Virus record (IMG/VR): IMGVR_UViG_3300030107_005298
Location: 1-56,792 of that record
Strand: one strand, 5' to 3'
Source: a virus
Taxonomy: Duplodnaviria; Caudoviricetes
Length of the DNA stretch: 56,792 nucleotides
This document shows positions 29 to 56,792 of this stretch, piece by piece. Under the pieces are notes generated by a model that was given only the letters and a program-made list of their open reading frames with translations, had not been told where the DNA came from and ran no database searches. Numbering within the stretch: the stretch's first letter is position 1; the number at the start of each line of letters is the position of its first letter. The position numbers were made by a program, and so were the translations under genes.

Positions 29-54
29 GAGCAGTTTTATGTCTTGCTCAGGAC
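29..54 (-). ncRNA. Putative H-type pseudoknot 3' of early gene (GUC-CUGAGCAA-GAC-AUAAAAC-UGCUC)
   Basis: P1 GUC/GAC, P2 GAGCA/UGCUC; the same architecture with compensatory P1 occurs at 54905-54931. Confidence 0.6.
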
Positions 55-1712: not shown

Positions 1713-3418
1713 TGTTCGATTTGGCTACCGTTCTCGTAGAAGCCAAGAAGACTTTAGAGGAGGATTCCGCTACGGACGTACGATTTACTCACAATTACGA
1801 GATATTTAAGAGGTTCGTACACGTTGCGGAGTCGTCTTCAACAGACGAAGAGTTTCATAGGCGCATATTGACTGATTTTGATTTGTTTTGTGTAGCGTAT
1901 GTGAGACTAGATAACCGCAAGCCTATGTTTCCTGCCCCCTGGCAGACTGAGGCTGTGGCTATTTTTGAAACTAGAGAGATTAATTTATTTATTGAACCTC
2001 GTAAAATAGGTAAGAGCGCGGTCTTGAGTGCATATATTCTTTGGAAGATGTGTAAAGAGGCCACGACTAGAGCAGTTATATTTGCTCCTACCCAGGACCA
2101 GCTTTTCATTATGGAAGATATATGGAAGGCATTAAAGCGATGTGATTATCTAATGCAGACTTATGTGCAACCACAGGCTAAGATGGGTGATAGAGGTACT
2201 TATGGTAAGGAATATATTCGGTTCGGTTTTAACGAATCCGAGGTTGTAGCTAGTAATTTAGCGCAATCACAGAAAGCAGACAGTAAAAGAGGTAACAAGG
2301 GGTCTCTTTTCGTCGTGGATGAGATAGAGTTGGTTACAAAGGAAGTAAGAACTACGGTTATTGACGATATGATGGCCGATACTTACACCGAAAAGAAGAT
2401 GATAATGGTAGGAACACCTAAGACAGTGGCCAATCCAGAGCTAGAAATAGAGTGGGAAGCCTACTTAGAAGAGCCCGAAGAGTACGGAACACACCACATT
2501 GACGTCTGGGACGCCATAAAACAGGGTGCAATCACCCGTAGCTATATAAAAAACCGTTTTAAACGTCTAAACATACCCTGTCAGTGGGTTTTGAAGAAGG
2601 GATTATGTGCCCCGCGCGACCTAACAGAGGAAGCGGAGATAGATGGGTGGAAGTGTAACAAGTGTTGTATGCTAAATGAGGACTTTGTTGCGGAAAATAT
2701 GGGAGAATTCCCTAAATCTGCAGGTAAATTCTTTCCGAAACTGTTTTTGCAGGAGTGTGCTAACGAATCTTGGGACTTAAAAATCAAACCAGAGGCAGGT
2801 AGAGAGTATATTATGGGGATTGACTACGGTTTGTTGCTAAACCCTACGCAAATAACGGTGTTCGAGGTAACAGGGGACCGCGCACGTCTAGTATTTTGGG
2901 AAGAAATAGCCCCCACGCCCCCAGAATCAGGCACAAGAGACTATGACCCTATTATAGAACGTATAAAGACTATATATCACGCGTATAAAGATAAAATAGT
3001 AAGAATATATCCAGATGCTACTGCAGTAGGTATACAAATAACAGCTGACCTTACTAAAGAACCTAGAAGAATACCTTCGGTGAAGATATATTCCAACGAA
3101 ACAGCAGCAAAGAAGGAAGTTCTTGGAGTATGGATGACTGGTCCTTTCAAGCACGATATGTTACAGAACTATCGTAAGATTATTATGGACGGACGTTTGA
3201 AAGTTCCTAAGAGTGAACCGTTTTACACTAAATTTTTACTAGAGCACGACGGAGTTGTAGTTCAGAAAGTACAGGGTACTTCTAACTATTTAAAATTTAA
3301 AGAACCTGTAGGTGGGACTATCGATTTACTCGATAGTATGGGATTAGCCCTTCTACATCTATCGAAAGATGTAAGTCCACCCTTTTTAGGTTTTGGAGTA
3401 TCGAAATTAAAAATATGA
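1712..3418 (+). CDS. terL: Terminase large subunit
   Basis: PWQ Q-motif, Walker A PRKIGKS, FAPTQDQ, Walker B FVVDE, GTP coupling motif, RNase H-like nuclease GIDYG ... DLLDS. Confidence 0.92.
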   Translation: MFDLATVLVEAKKTLEEDSATDVRFTHNYEIFKRFVHVAESSSTDEEFHRRILTDFDLFCVAYVRLDNRKPMFPAPWQTEAVAIFETREINLFIEPRKIGKSAVLSAYILWKMCKEATTRAVIFAPTQDQLFIMEDIWKALKRCDYLMQTYVQPQAKMGDRGTYGKEYIRFGFNESEVVASNLAQSQKADSKRGNKGSLFVVDEIELVTKEVRTTVIDDMMADTYTEKKMIMVGTPKTVANPELEIEWEAYLEEPEEYGTHHIDVWDAIKQGAITRSYIKNRFKRLNIPCQWVLKKGLCAPRDLTEEAEIDGWKCNKCCMLNEDFVAENMGEFPKSAGKFFPKLFLQECANESWDLKIKPEAGREYIMGIDYGLLLNPTQITVFEVTGDRARLVFWEEIAPTPPESGTRDYDPIIERIKTIYHAYKDKIVRIYPDATAVGIQITADLTKEPRRIPSVKIYSNETAAKKEVLGVWMTGPFKHDMLQNYRKIIMDGRLKVPKSEPFYTKFLLEHDGVVVQKVQGTSNYLKFKEPVGGTIDLLDSMGLALLHLSKDVSPPFLGFGVSKLKI

Positions 3419-53728: not shown

Positions 53729-53907
53729 TTTGCGTAAGGTTCGCAGAACGCACGTAGTGATTGCTCATCCTTCCAATCCTGATGCTCATCATACGCACGA
53801 CCTACGAGGCTGTCCTCGTGTATAAGGTCACGTTCTTCCTGCGTTAAGTCTACGTCACCGTAGAAGTCGTCGTCTATGCTCATATCTGTGTGTGTGTTTG
53901 TGTTCAT
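53710..53907 (-). CDS. Hypothetical acidic protein (start MNTNTH)
   Basis: GGAGTG SD. Confidence 0.5.
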   Translation of the reverse strand: MNTNTHTDMSIDDDFYGDVDLTQEERDLIHEDSLVGRAYDEHQDWKDEQSLRAFCEPYANWVRNL

Positions 53908-53912
53908 TTTGT

Positions 53913-54377
53913 TCACTCCTTTGTGTCCCATCCTGCATACTCGAAGGCACGTAGGATACCTGCCTTATCATCCTTCGCAGTCGCTATCGTGAAATCACGT
54001 AGTGATGCGTTCGTGAGGTTAAGTGGGTTCGATGTCCTGTCACTTACGTAGGCTTTGCGATAGTTACCCATCGCATCCGCATACTTACCTGCCATACGTT
54101 GGTGTTGAACGTGGAATGGGGACTCACGTGCATACGTAGACAGCTCCGAGTTTGCTACTGCTGGTTCTTCGTGGTTATACGCATTACGATACGAACACCA
54201 CGCATTACGCCACGCTAACACATCATCCGTAGACAATGCGTATTGCTCTGCTATTGCCCAACTGAATGGGCGGACAGGGTGAGGTGACCCTGCCGTAGCC
54301 CGTGCACACTCAGGGAGAGTGTCACCGACTGTCTGACACGGGGATGTATTATCCCTCAACGCTTCGTTTGGAAACAT
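53913..54377 (-). CDS. Early hypothetical protein
   Basis: Directly downstream of promoter 54397-54416. Confidence 0.65.
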   Translation of the reverse strand: MFPNEALRDNTSPCQTVGDTLPECARATAGSPHPVRPFSWAIAEQYALSTDDVLAWRNAWCSYRNAYNHEEPAVANSELSTYARESPFHVQHQRMAGKYADAMGNYRKAYVSDRTSNPLNLTNASLRDFTIATAKDDKAGILRAFEYAGWDTKE

Positions 54378-54396
54378 TAACCTCTCAGAATCAGGG

Positions 54397-54416
54397 TTCT
54401 TTATAAACCTTTGCTT
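54397..54416 (-). promoter_or_regulatory. Archaeal early promoter (BRE + TATA)
   Basis: AAGCAAAGGTTTATAAAGAA, 19/20 identical to 55601-55620, same 19-nt spacing to the start codon. Confidence 0.75.
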
Positions 54417-54429
54417 CCCTCGATGTCAA

Positions 54430-54850
54430 GGCCACAGGTGTGTGTCGCATAGCACACGCCACGCCCCCCGCATAACACCCGTATCACCCGCATCATACAC
54501 GCACGGCACACGCCTATAGCACATAGCATCTGTGTTTATTAGAGGACATACTTCTACGTATATATATATACATATATGTTCTATGTTTACAAACGTATGT
54601 GTATCCCCCCTCTCTCTCCTACGTACGTATATGTTCACATACGTATATGTTCGTATATGTATATACATACATACGTATACGTATACGCAACTGCAATAGC
54701 ACTTATTGTTCATACGAACGCACGAACGTAGAAGAACATCTGACCCCCCTCACTAACGTACGTGTACGTACGTATGCGGGATAGCACAGGTTCACAGACG
54801 TGCGTAGATTAGAAAGCCCACGCGCGTATACGCGGGTCCTACGTACGTAG
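54430..54850. repeat. Non-coding alternating purine-pyrimidine, TACGTA/TATA palindrome-rich tract
   Basis: For example tacgtatatatatatacatatatg, catacgtatacgtatacgc, cctacgtacgtagg. Confidence 0.75.
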
Positions 54851-54869
54851 GTATGGATAAAATAAAGTA
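54851..54869 (-). terminator. 19-nt repeated U-rich terminator-like motif, copy 1
   Basis: TACTTTATTTTATCCATAC on -, identical at 55798-55816, preceded by a hairpin (54874-54899). Confidence 0.55.
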
Positions 54870-54904
54870 GTCTAGTTCGCCCTACGTATGTAGGTGAACG
54901 TAGT

Positions 54905-54931
54905 GAGCAGTTTTCCTACGTGCTCAGGTAG
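54905..54931 (-). ncRNA. Putative H-type pseudoknot 3' of early gene (CUAC-CUGAGCAC-GUAG-GAAAAC-UGCUC)
   Basis: Compensatory P1 (CUAC/GUAG versus GUC/GAC) with conserved CUGAGCA and AAAACUGCUC. Confidence 0.6.
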
Positions 54932-54945
54932 TCAGGTGTGTGCGT

Positions 54946-55581
54946 CTAACCCTGTGGGTCGAACACCAAGTAGTCAACCTTCATACGTTGACCTTTGGTC
55001 GCTTTGTCTACGCTCTTGTAGAAGGGCGAAGTTTGTTTGAACGCCTGTGCGTCTTTCTTGCGTAGGGCCCCGATGATGTATCGTGTGCCTACCTTGTCGT
55101 CTTTGACGACAACCCCGAAGGCTTTGCCCTCGTATGTGCCTACCTGCTCAAGGAACAGCTTAGTCGTAAACCCTGTCCCCGTGTCTTTTCGCATACGTAG
55201 GTAGTCCCTGCATATGCTCAGTGCATCAGGTTCGTCTACGACGACACCCTGAACCACAGGCATTACGTTCGTGGACATACCGAGTATCTCGTGAACGCCT
55301 GAGAGATTCCCAAGCTTACGTGCGAAGTTCTTCACGTTACCCGAGATGAACTCACCGTTCCCACGTGTGGACATCTTCGTGATGCTCACGCTACGTCTGA
55401 CCCCGTCGAAGAACCGGTCAAGCTGTTTGCGTTGCTTCTCGCCCGAACACCCAGCACGTTCGTAAACGTCTGCGTAGGTGTCTTGTGTAGCCGACTTGCG
55501 ACTGACTAGCTCGGCTTGTAGCTGGGCATCCGTATACCCAGCTAAGCCCTGTGTGTCTGTGTTCGTTGTCACATTTTTCAC
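54946..55581 (-). CDS. Early hypothetical protein
   Basis: 211-aa ORF between promoter 55601-55620 and the pseudoknot. Confidence 0.7.
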   Translation of the reverse strand: MKNVTTNTDTQGLAGYTDAQLQAELVSRKSATQDTYADVYERAGCSGEKQRKQLDRFFDGVRRSVSITKMSTRGNGEFISGNVKNFARKLGNLSGVHEILGMSTNVMPVVQGVVVDEPDALSICRDYLRMRKDTGTGFTTKLFLEQVGTYEGKAFGVVVKDDKVGTRYIIGALRKKDAQAFKQTSPFYKSVDKATKGQRMKVDYLVFDPQG

Positions 55582-55600
55582 CGTTCCTCAGTAGGGGGCT

Positions 55601-55620
55601 TTCTTTATAAAGCTTTGCTT
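55601..55620 (-). promoter_or_regulatory. Archaeal early promoter (BRE + TATA)
   Basis: AAGCAAAGCTTTATAAAGAA. Confidence 0.75.
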
Positions 55621-55797
55621 ATCGACGATAACATCGACGACAACGACACGCGTATATCGTGAGGCGTGAGCGATTGCAGATGGTTCCGATGGCTGGGTTT
55701 CCATAGGCGAACGAGCGGGATTACTGCCTACGCAAGGTTTTTATTCCAGAAGGCCCCAGGCGGGCGCGCGCGGGCGCGGGAGCGGGATAGATAGTCA

Positions 55798-55844
55798 GTA
55801 TGGATAAAATAAAGTAAGTAGAGCCTGTGGGGGCCGAAGCCCCC
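55798..55844 (-). terminator. GGGGGC-UUCG-GCCCCC hairpin plus 19-nt U-rich motif, copy 2
   Basis: cUUCGg tetraloop hairpin (55829-55844) followed by TACTTTATTTTATCCATAC. Confidence 0.65.
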
Positions 55845-55862
55845 GACTCCCACACATTCTGT

Positions 55863-56054
55863 CTAAGACAATAGCTGGTCTAAGGTTTCACCCCAGATTA
55901 GCATATATTTTTTGTATTTCTCCAAACATCTTTTACAGTTTATGCGTTTTATGTCCCTGTCTTTTGCACAAATATACTCCTGTCGAGTCATTTCGTGTCC
56001 ACAGAAAGACATCTTCTTATCACTGAGTATGTCAGTCATATGTTTTCTTCTCAT
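55863..56054 (-). CDS. Small zinc-finger protein
   Basis: H...FCG...CKRC; GGAGG SD. Confidence 0.6.
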   Translation of the reverse strand: MRRKHMTDILSDKKMSFCGHEMTRQEYICAKDRDIKRINCKRCLEKYKKYMLIWGETLDQLLS

Positions 56055-56206
56055 AGTTCTTCCTCCTCTATGGTTTTTCCCGATTCTAATTTAGGTGAAT
56101 AAGTTTTCATAAACTCTCGGTATTCTCCACCTACATTCTTCCGTTCGTTATATTCACGAACTAAATCCAAGCCTTTATCTGTTATTTCCCACAGTTTTTT
56201 AGCCAT
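56051..56206 (-). CDS. 51-aa hypothetical protein (MAKKLWEITDKG...)
   Basis: Translated by hand; ATGA overlap with the downstream gene. Confidence 0.55.
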   Translation of the reverse strand: MAKKLWEITDKGLDLVREYNERKNVGGEYREFMKTYSPKLESGKTIEEEEL

Positions 56207-56305
56207 TTTCTATCCCGAGTATGCCGGAGCATAACTCTATAGGAAGACGAAAGTCGGATGCTCCCTCTACTGACCGGCCTTGACCAGCATCAGCTTCATA
56301 GGGAG

Positions 56306-56331
56306 GAGCAGTTTTATGTCTTGCTCAGGAC
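56306..56331 (-). ncRNA. Putative pseudoknot (same as 29-54)
   Basis: Identical to the left-end copy. Confidence 0.6.
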
Positions 56332-56345
56332 GATTGACATACTGC

Positions 56346-56696
56346 CTATGCCTTCAATTTACTGAAGACAGGCTTCTTCGGATGTTTCCCAGCTTTCCAT
56401 TCAGCTAGGACAGTGTCTTTGTGGGCTGTAAGGCCCCACTTTTCACCGTTATCCTTCACACCACCATACCGCCATTGCTTAGTCTTGCATTTTTCACGAG
56501 AACAACTGCAAGAATAAAGTTCCTGACTTTTCTTGGTGCGAGGCTTCGAAGAACGCTTACCCTTTTTCTTACTGTCATTGCTTAAAGCTCTAGTAAGATT
56601 ACCCTCTGAACGCTCTAAAAGAGCTTCCAGATGAGCCACAACTGTTTTGAGCTGACGCTCAATTTTGTTGAGTTTGGTTTCGACTTTTGTTGCCAT
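56346..56696 (-). CDS. Basic early protein (copy 2), homologue of 69-413
   Basis: MATKVET... N-terminus nearly identical; ELYSCSC and KWGLTAHKD conserved. Confidence 0.85.
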   Translation of the reverse strand: MATKVETKLNKIERQLKTVVAHLEALLERSEGNLTRALSNDSKKKGKRSSKPRTKKSQELYSCSCSREKCKTKQWRYGGVKDNGEKWGLTAHKDTVLAEWKAGKHPKKPVFSKLKA

Positions 56697-56792
56697 ATTT
56701 GTATACCTCCTTTCGTTGGTTTTTTGTGACTAAACCGTGACTAGTCACACGTTGGGTAGGCTTCTCCATACCACTTTCTCAGCTCCAGCTTC

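Follow-up and report, generated by a model that had tools for sequence, protein, structure and literature searches.

The element at positions 54905 to 54931 of the DNA analysed here, a viral record of 56,792 nucleotides (the window), is an H-type RNA pseudoknot and a genuine member of a large family that extends across unrelated phages and bacteria of many phyla. The H-type fold follows from the covariation of both of its helices, P1 and P2, and the wobble pairs observed on the gene-sense strand mark it as an RNA-level element. The knot is oriented with the genes, lies between them, is anchored to the stop codon of the upstream gene and stands in a number of genomes shortly ahead of RNA cleavage sites. 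The family is absent from the RNA catalogues searched (Rfam) and from the searchable papers.

Pseudoknot copies in the window

The plan of the element comprises about 27 nt, namely a P1 of 3–6 bp closed by a C-G pair, an L1 of 2 nt (CU), a P2 of 5 bp (GAGCA/UGCUC), a single-nucleotide junction and an A-rich L3 of 6 nt with AAAC at its end, which gives the family consensus NNNC-CU-GAGCA-W-GNNN-NNAAAC-UGCUC. Three minus-strand copies that fit this consensus are present in the window (Table 1), and direct reading of the DNA reproduced the sequences given for them by an earlier, sequence-only reading. The core pattern CTGAGCA-N(3-14)-AAAACTGCTC occurred three times in the window and not once in 100 shuffles, and a relaxed geometric scan of the whole window added no other convincing copy. 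The P1 of copies 2 and 3 has just 3 bp, and a rival 6-bp helix (UAUGUC/GACAUA) competes for the same 3′ strand. Nested ViennaRNA folds of the window copies were unremarkable (z of –0.9 to –1.5), this program being unable to fold pseudoknots.

Table 1. Positions of the pseudoknot copies, of neighbouring features in the window and of related elements on other contigs (L numbers).
Feature	Position	Strand	Sequence or remark
Pseudoknot copy 1	54905..54931	minus	CUAC-CUGAGCAC-GUAG-GAAAAC-UGCUC, read at 54931..54905; row of alignment A1
Copy 1, P1	54931-54928 + 54919-54916	minus	CUAC + GUAG
Copy 1, L1	54927-54926	minus	CU
Copy 1, P2	54925-54921 + 54909-54905	minus	GAGCA + UGCUC
Copy 1, junction	54920	minus	C
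Copy 1, L3	54915-54910	minus	GAAAAC
Pseudoknot copy 2	56306..56331	minus	GUC-CUGAGCAA-GAC-AUAAAAC-UGCUC, read at 56331..56306
Copy 2, P1	56331-56329 + 56320-56318	minus	GUC + GAC
Copy 2, L1		minus	CU
Copy 2, P2	56326-56322 + 56310-56306	minus	GAGCA + UGCUC
Copy 2, L3		minus	AUAAAAC
Pseudoknot copy 3	29..54	minus	Same sequence as copy 2, read at 54..29; in the diverged left-end copy of the gene at the right end
ORF, 211 aa	54946..55581	minus	TAG ends 14 nt before P1 of copy 1; no confident family
ORF, 116 aa	56346..56696	minus	TAG ends 14 nt before P1 of copy 2; no family
Diverged paralogue of the 116-aa ORF	69-413	minus	Precedes copy 3
Terminator-like hairpin with T-rich tail	54817..54836	minus	About 70 nt downstream of copy 1; uncertain whether part of the element
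Possible long variant	L035:6625-6670	plus	CCUGAGUA-U-GGAGGAAAUCCUUU-AGUGU-CUAAAC-UGCUC
Second compact H-type knot	L169:40-80 and 625-665	plus	CCCAG-UUA-GAGCU-CUGGG-UUACCAAA-AGCUC; 7 nt after a TAA stop
Repeat of about 45 nt	L169:340-390, 2550-2600 and 3150-3200	plus	..CUGCAUGGGCUU..CCGUUGAAACACGAAAAG..; after knots or terminators
Mini-gene	L159:7517-7579	minus	20-codon ORF
tmRNA-family match	L051:11486-11558	plus	47.3 bits (threshold 47)

The window (56.8 kb) is estimated to be 93% complete and encodes a tape-measure protein, a large terminase, a family-A DNA polymerase and a ribonucleotide reductase. No tRNA was found in it, and its terminase protein and the DNA at 54400-56792 had no match in the phage collection. 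The 211-aa ORF gave only a weak PHROG match (E = 0.0038) and no Pfam match. The placement of these genes at the head of early transcription units, proposed in the sequence-only reading, is putative: a sigma-70 scan of 53800-56792 returned one weak site, compared with a mean of 3.8 in shuffled sequence. Downstream of copy 1, a 190-nt gap (54720-54900, minus strand) is dense in CTACGTA/TACGTAGG palindromes (CCTACATACGTAGG, CCTACGTACGTAGG, ACGTACGTACACGTACGT) and holds the terminator-like hairpin. The P1 words of copy 1 (CUAC/GUAG) recur in these palindromes, and the gap looks like a putative operator set or regulatory region.

The element had also been described as unchanged between two otherwise diverged terminal copies. 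The sequence is the same in copies 2 and 3, but the identity already starts 8 nt before the element and continues for 31 nt past it, as far as the end of the window, and is thus not specific to the element, since the flanks are identical too. The segments 1-507 and 56286-56792 are diverged direct copies (89% mean column identity) of a 114/116-aa gene with its flanks, with an indel within the coding part and near-identity on both flanks. They could be a true diverged terminal repeat, or two variants of one circularly permuted genome could have been assembled together.

Covariation and spread of the family

Each helix was assessed in copies chosen without regard to it. Among unique viral copies picked by core sequence only, P1 was paired over 3–7 bp in 128/140, against 1/140 and 12/140 in registers shifted by one base, and more than 35 different P1 sequences were found. 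Conversely, among 151 unique candidates picked on P1 (4/4 pairs), an L1 of CU and an L3 ending in AAAC, all five pairs of P2 were formed in 125, with 12 pair types that include G-U wobbles. The type GAGCA/UGCUC accounted for 93 of them, followed by GAGUA/UGCUC with its G-U wobble (12), AAGCA/UGCUU (6), GAGCA/UGCUU (5) and GGGCA/UGCCC (2), and seven other types were seen once each, including GAGUA/UACUC, GAACA/UGUUC, GGACA/UGUCC and AGGCA/UGCCU. The compensatory change of P1 proposed from the window copies is therefore real, and the covariation within the family is far stronger than the window alone reveals.

Alignment A1 was built from these candidates, one being left out (150 rows). Its paired cells amounted to 94.4%, versus 68.8% after shuffling (a value that none of 500 shuffles raised to that of the alignment) and 28–39% in slid registers; P1 had been pre-selected to pair, so that for this helix only the covariation counts in A1, and not the percentage. 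The C-G pair closing P1 was kept in 125/150 rows, and the A of P2 in column 11, which had not been selected for, was conserved in at least 90% of rows. The invariance of columns 5-6 (the CU of L1) and 19-22 (the AAAC of L3) is uninformative in this alignment because selection had fixed them.

The scan of viral contigs with the core pattern returned at least 118 loci. The gap was exactly 6 nt in 108 of the 146 viral matches listed, in contrast to chance matches, which would be spread evenly over gap lengths. The same scan of one genome per prokaryotic species also returned at least 118 loci. P1 was in register in 65 of the 119 prokaryotic matches listed, corresponding to at least about 65 bacterial or archaeal genome contigs. 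Among the matches listed, these in-register copies belonged to Saccharibacteria and other CPR, Aminicenantes, several families of Clostridia, Thermodesulfobacteriota, Spirochaetota, Bacteroidota, Actinomycetota, Cyanobacteria and one DPANN archaeal bin, with Nocardia nova and Butyrivibrio sp. INlla21 among the isolates. The pattern, which contains AAAAC, caught only part of the family, because L3 reads NNAAAC in the consensus. A possible long variant, in which a hairpin of about 14 nt separates the junction from the 3′ strand of P1, was noticed inside a 270-nt non-coding gap (Table 1).

No Rfam 15 family matched the window at gathering threshold, and permissive Rfam scans (E up to 10) of 54700-56792 and of L035 5950-8000, the latter holding three copies, returned only Ocean-V RNA (RF01714) at the knots. 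The 3′ hairpin and GAAAaCU tail of this family align with the P1 3′ strand and L3 of copy 2. The match nevertheless scores 20.4 bits (E = 0.47), with the gathering score at 75, the Ocean-V 5′ hairpin generally has no counterpart, and copy 1 is not matched. Hence, the Rfam comparison advised in the sequence-only reading found no characterised family at the copies. Its view of a structured cis-RNA pseudoknot outside the named families agrees with the covariation of both helices, with the Rfam result and with copies that lie just upstream of RNA cleavage sites; an exonuclease block and a processing signal were among the roles it had considered. No paper naming the motif was found in the searchable literature; the 2023 catalogue of 10,006 viral candidate RNAs (PMC10690425) may contain it in its tables.

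Genomic neighbourhood of the knot

In viral copies, the nearest upstream ORF was co-oriented with the knot in 135 cases and opposite in 12, and the nearest downstream ORF was co-oriented in 121 and opposite in 18, while 2/156 copies lay inside a same-strand ORF of at least 80 aa. The distance from the stop codon to P1 was never below 4 nt in the viral set, peaked at 4–8 nt and was shorter than 20 nt in 67/135 cases, whereas the distance to the next ORF start was broad. This contrast indicates that the element is anchored to the upstream stop. Read against published ribosome footprints, the 4-nt minimum would fit a knot placed as near to the terminating ribosome as possible without being unwound. 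Considering all copies, the position of the stop ranges from well upstream of the knot to inside it. Among 75 non-redundant cases, the stop was TAA in 51, TAG in 20 and TGA in 4, and it ended 9–13 nt before CUGAGCA in 41/75, the window copies standing at 17–18 nt. The placement 14 nt after a UAG stop, noted earlier for the window, holds for its three copies and does not extend to the family: neither UAG nor the 14-nt spacing is a family feature, because TAA dominates and spacings are mostly shorter. The neighbour genes are diverse and mostly of no known family. A DUF932 gene was common to 38/118 loci, and all-against-all clustering of 2572 ORFs gave no protein family common to the window and the other knot loci.

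A same-strand tRNA followed 4–14 nt downstream in 32/153 viral copies, 25 of them with tRNA-Asp, and in 0/153 did a tRNA end within 100 nt upstream of the knot. These tRNA-adjacent cases come largely from one phage lineage, marked by the DUF932 gene. When the loci of this lineage were gathered by the DUF932 protein, with the knot disregarded, a canonical knot was found between the DUF932 stop and tRNA-Asp in 53 of 56 non-redundant loci and a variant in the other three, and P1 changed many times among DUF932 proteins that are 89–100% identical. Streptomyces phage Jay2Jay, the closest named DUF932 phage, has no knot behind that gene, ordinary terminators being found there instead. A link to queuosine through tRNA-Asp was rejected, the upstream gene being DUF932 and not a gene of the Q pathway. 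A tRNA-like ACCA tail was likewise rejected: ACCA follows 14/140 viral copies, and by uncounted inspection these lie mostly before the tRNAs of one lineage, while bacterial copies are without it.

More generally, knots often lie 2–14 nt ahead of cleavage sites or structured RNAs, i.e., tRNA 5′ ends and, on one contig, twister-like elements; for most viral copies, no cleavage site is recognisable downstream. The contig in question (L169, Selenomonadaceae) carries seven knot copies within 4 kb and three twister-P1-like elements that score 36–41 bits (E = 2e-6 to 3e-5) and fall short of the gathering score (67.2). One of these (40.6 bits, E = 2e-6) begins 2 nt after a canonical knot, the two others (36.4 bits) begin 4 nt after a different compact knot (Table 1), and knots and twister-like elements alternate between small genes. 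The repeat of about 45 nt on the same contig had no Rfam match at E of 0.1 or below. No hammerhead was found in 13 multi-copy loci (135.7 kb), where only tRNAs and one tmRNA-like match were returned. A tmRNA-family match marginally above threshold lies on a viral contig with several knots (Table 1).

In bacteria, the knot can be part of a stand-alone mini-gene. This comprises a promoter, a ribosome-binding site and an ORF of 20 codons that stops at the UGA contained in CCUGAGCA of the knot, and an intrinsic terminator follows about 20 nt after the knot. This mini-gene is spread over Aminicenantes, Clostridia, Thermodesulfobacteriota, Spirochaetota and Acidimicrobiia (Table 1; further loci on L131, L151, L157, L164, L172, L185, L188, L189, L211 and L230). 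Its product is a conserved 20-aa Cys/His peptide (..PRxAHCxxGC..) that has no Pfam or NCBIfam match, and variation at third codon positions supports real coding. In Saccharibacteria, a 5′ leader holds an upstream ORF of 14 codons whose end falls in L3, and 22 nt separate the end of the knot from the ATG of the next gene.

Possible function and comparison with known systems

We tentatively favour, at a level of confidence that falls somewhat short of probable, a role of the knot as a compact 3′-end cap, or punctuation mark, that would protect the upstream message after processing. Cleavage of the polycistronic RNA a few bases beyond the knot, whether by RNase P (at a tRNA 5′ end), a self-cleaving ribozyme or an endonuclease acting in an A/U-rich leader, would create a 3′ terminus 3–10 nt away from the knot. 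A single-stranded 3′ tail of about 7–10 nt is needed by PNPase, RNase II and RNase R. Hence, a short tail beside a tight fold, in which L3 presumably lies in the groove of P1, may deny 3′-to-5′ exonucleases a foothold, and since the tail would be too short for them, the upstream message would keep its stop codon and last longer. Several observations count against such a cap. A recognisable cleavage site is lacking downstream of most viral copies, the twister example comes from a single contig with sub-threshold scores, and the tRNA cases come largely from one lineage. In the mini-gene, the intrinsic terminator makes an additional cap look redundant, and in Saccharibacteria the knot overlaps the end of an upstream ORF in a 5′ leader. 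Besides, the conservation of L1, L3 and P2 across phyla exceeds what a roadblock would seem to need, and would suit a specific partner, a ligand or a catalytic core. Exonuclease resistance cannot be assumed from the fold alone, because simple frameshifter pseudoknots did not stall the 5′-3′ exonuclease Xrn1 (accessible part of PMC10321173).

The same placement could be read from the other side, the knot stopping a 5′-to-3′ exonuclease such as RNase J, or a ribosome, and thereby shielding or insulating a downstream tRNA, ribozyme or cistron in the manner of an exonuclease-resistant RNA (xrRNA). This would agree with the structured RNAs that begin 2–14 nt after knots and with the resemblance to the coremin xrRNA of plant viruses (C-G-closed hairpin, ..AAACU.. 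spacer and, in its Watson-Crick variant, a GAG-CUC stem; accessible parts of PMC10321173 and PMC6546385), an element that also blocks scanning ribosomes and stimulates frameshifting according to the part of PMC10321173 consulted, while the accessible text of PMC11702639 places xrRNAs at the starts of 3′ UTRs. We consider it distinctly unlikely, given that the element is anchored to the upstream stop and not to a downstream feature, that only a terminator follows it in the bacterial mini-gene, and that the second hairpin needed by coremin is not enriched after knots. Less likely again is that the knot is itself the processing signal that divides operon RNA into units, be it as a new class of self-cleaving ribozyme or as a site recognised by a specific endoribonuclease. 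Its distribution resembles that of small ribozymes (many phyla and phages, several copies per contig, intergenic positions), its invariant unpaired core is flanked by covarying stems, and on L169 it shares a region with twister-like elements. However, at sites with a known cutter (RNase P at a tRNA, twister), the knot adjoins it and does not replace it, the knot overlaps the stop codons of small ORFs, and the window has no protein family in common with the other loci. With only 27 nt and two helices, it is also smaller, to our knowledge, than any natural self-cleaving class.

An improbable role in translation, in which the knot would stand at the mRNA entrance of a ribosome with the stop in its A site and modulate termination, recycling, read-through, frameshifting or coupling, would draw on the 4–8-nt peak and 4-nt minimum of the viral stop-to-P1 spacing, on stop codons inside the knot in two bacterial families and on a geometry like that of luteovirus frameshift knots. 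Slippery heptamers 4–9 nt upstream were found in 14/262 copies, mostly as A-runs after the stop, compared with 55/2620 control positions, and in 193/262 copies all reading frames are closed no more than 30 nt past the knot, which leaves no extended product possible there; on these two counts a frameshift or read-through signal was rejected. The type of stop codon is not specific either, and its position varies from well upstream of the knot to inside it. That the shape of the knot is recognised by a small ligand or a conserved protein, as in a riboswitch-like aptamer or the site of a regulator or antitermination factor, has a similarly low probability. Such recognition would account for the conserved A of P2 and the C-G closing of P1, and the smallest riboswitches have the same topology. 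Against it stand the diverse neighbour genes with no co-occurring local partner, a 1-nt junction that leaves no obvious pocket, the lack of an Rfam riboswitch match at E up to 10 and a placement after genes instead of before a defined regulon. A signal in DNA, such as a hairpin promoter, an operator or a recombination site, is highly improbable. GAGCA/TGCTC is an inverted repeat, and promoters of N4-type phages are DNA hairpins with covarying stems, but the helices of the knot are interleaved, its G-T wobbles (12 GAGTA/TGCTC forms) are confined to the sense strand, its orientation strictly follows that of the genes, and it is located within transcripts, with a promoter-proximal small ORF on one side and the terminator of that ORF on the other.

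If the knot does fix and protect RNA ends, it would constitute a new RNA-stability module, portable and very small, that works in many bacterial phyla and in their phages. It would account for the balancing of neighbouring-gene expression by phages on one transcript and for the survival of messages beside tRNA or ribozyme cleavage sites, and it would tie bacterial RNA decay to a kind of nuclease resistance, based on pseudoknots, for which only eukaryotic viruses have so far provided examples. A 27-nt stabiliser would also be a useful part for synthetic operons. That the knot is the first prokaryotic counterpart of eukaryotic-virus xrRNAs, a sequence-defined, nuclease-proof, portable module of 27 nt fixing RNA ends at gene boundaries across phyla and either convergent with or related to coremin, is, in our judgement, rather unlikely. 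In any case, the family merits an Rfam entry, so that annotation no longer treats such gaps as empty.

The resemblance to the coremin xrRNA (xrRNA-C) of plant RNA viruses and its Watson-Crick variant (xrRNA-WCC) is striking. According to the accessible parts of PMC10321173 and PMC6546385, these share with the knot a short first hairpin with C-G loop closing, an A-rich spacer with AAAC followed by U, and a second stem formed between loop and spacer, GAG-CUC in the Watson-Crick variant; the overall size and the placement behind the coding region are alike as well. The first hairpin of 3–5 bp with C-G closing is indeed recognisable in the knot (C-G in 125/150 rows of A1; P1 of 3–7 bp in 128/140 copies). 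Its loop departs from the coremin form YGAD (YGNNAD for 6-nt loops), being the 8-nt CUGAGCAW, in which only the first Y and the final AD agree, and its P2 has 5 bp with an L1 of CU. A second hairpin (hp2) directly after the spacer is required for the Xrn1 resistance of coremin, whereas a stem of at least 5 bp starting 0–3 nt after the knot was present in 25% of 268 copies, compared with 21–29% in shifted and random controls. Moreover, the hosts of the knot are bacteria and phages, without Xrn1. Taken strictly, then, the knot falls outside the coremin xrRNAs.

The H-type pseudoknots that stimulate –1 frameshifting in luteoviruses (BWYV, PLRV) are similar in their short stem 1, 2-nt loop 1, 1-nt junction, A-rich loop of 6–7 nt spanning stem 1 and total of about 27 nt, as known in part from the accessible text of PMC10321173. 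They differ in lying inside a coding overlap, whereas the knot follows a stop codon and has neither a slippery heptamer nor an overlapping downstream frame. An intrinsic terminator was rejected, as no U tract comes at once after the hairpin (A follows P2 in 100/140 copies); terminator-like sites within 80 nt downstream were seen in 8/193 viral copies versus 27/965 controls and in 10/73 bacterial copies versus 17/365 controls. A preQ1-I riboswitch was rejected as well, on the basis of no PreQ1 match at E up to 10 and of a single-nucleotide junction in place of a multi-nucleotide L2 pocket, and a boxA or nut-like reading of UGCUC was discarded, the bases that follow not being conserved.

No model of a known self-cleaving ribozyme matched any knot copy scanned, the twister-like matches on L169 adjoining the knot. 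Known bacterial 3′ stabilisers are plain hairpins without conserved sequence. Although the knot matches no ribozyme family, it shares with the ribozyme punctuation of phage and prophage operons, and with bacterial stem-loop 3′ stabilisers, an intergenic, gene-by-gene arrangement along one long transcript.
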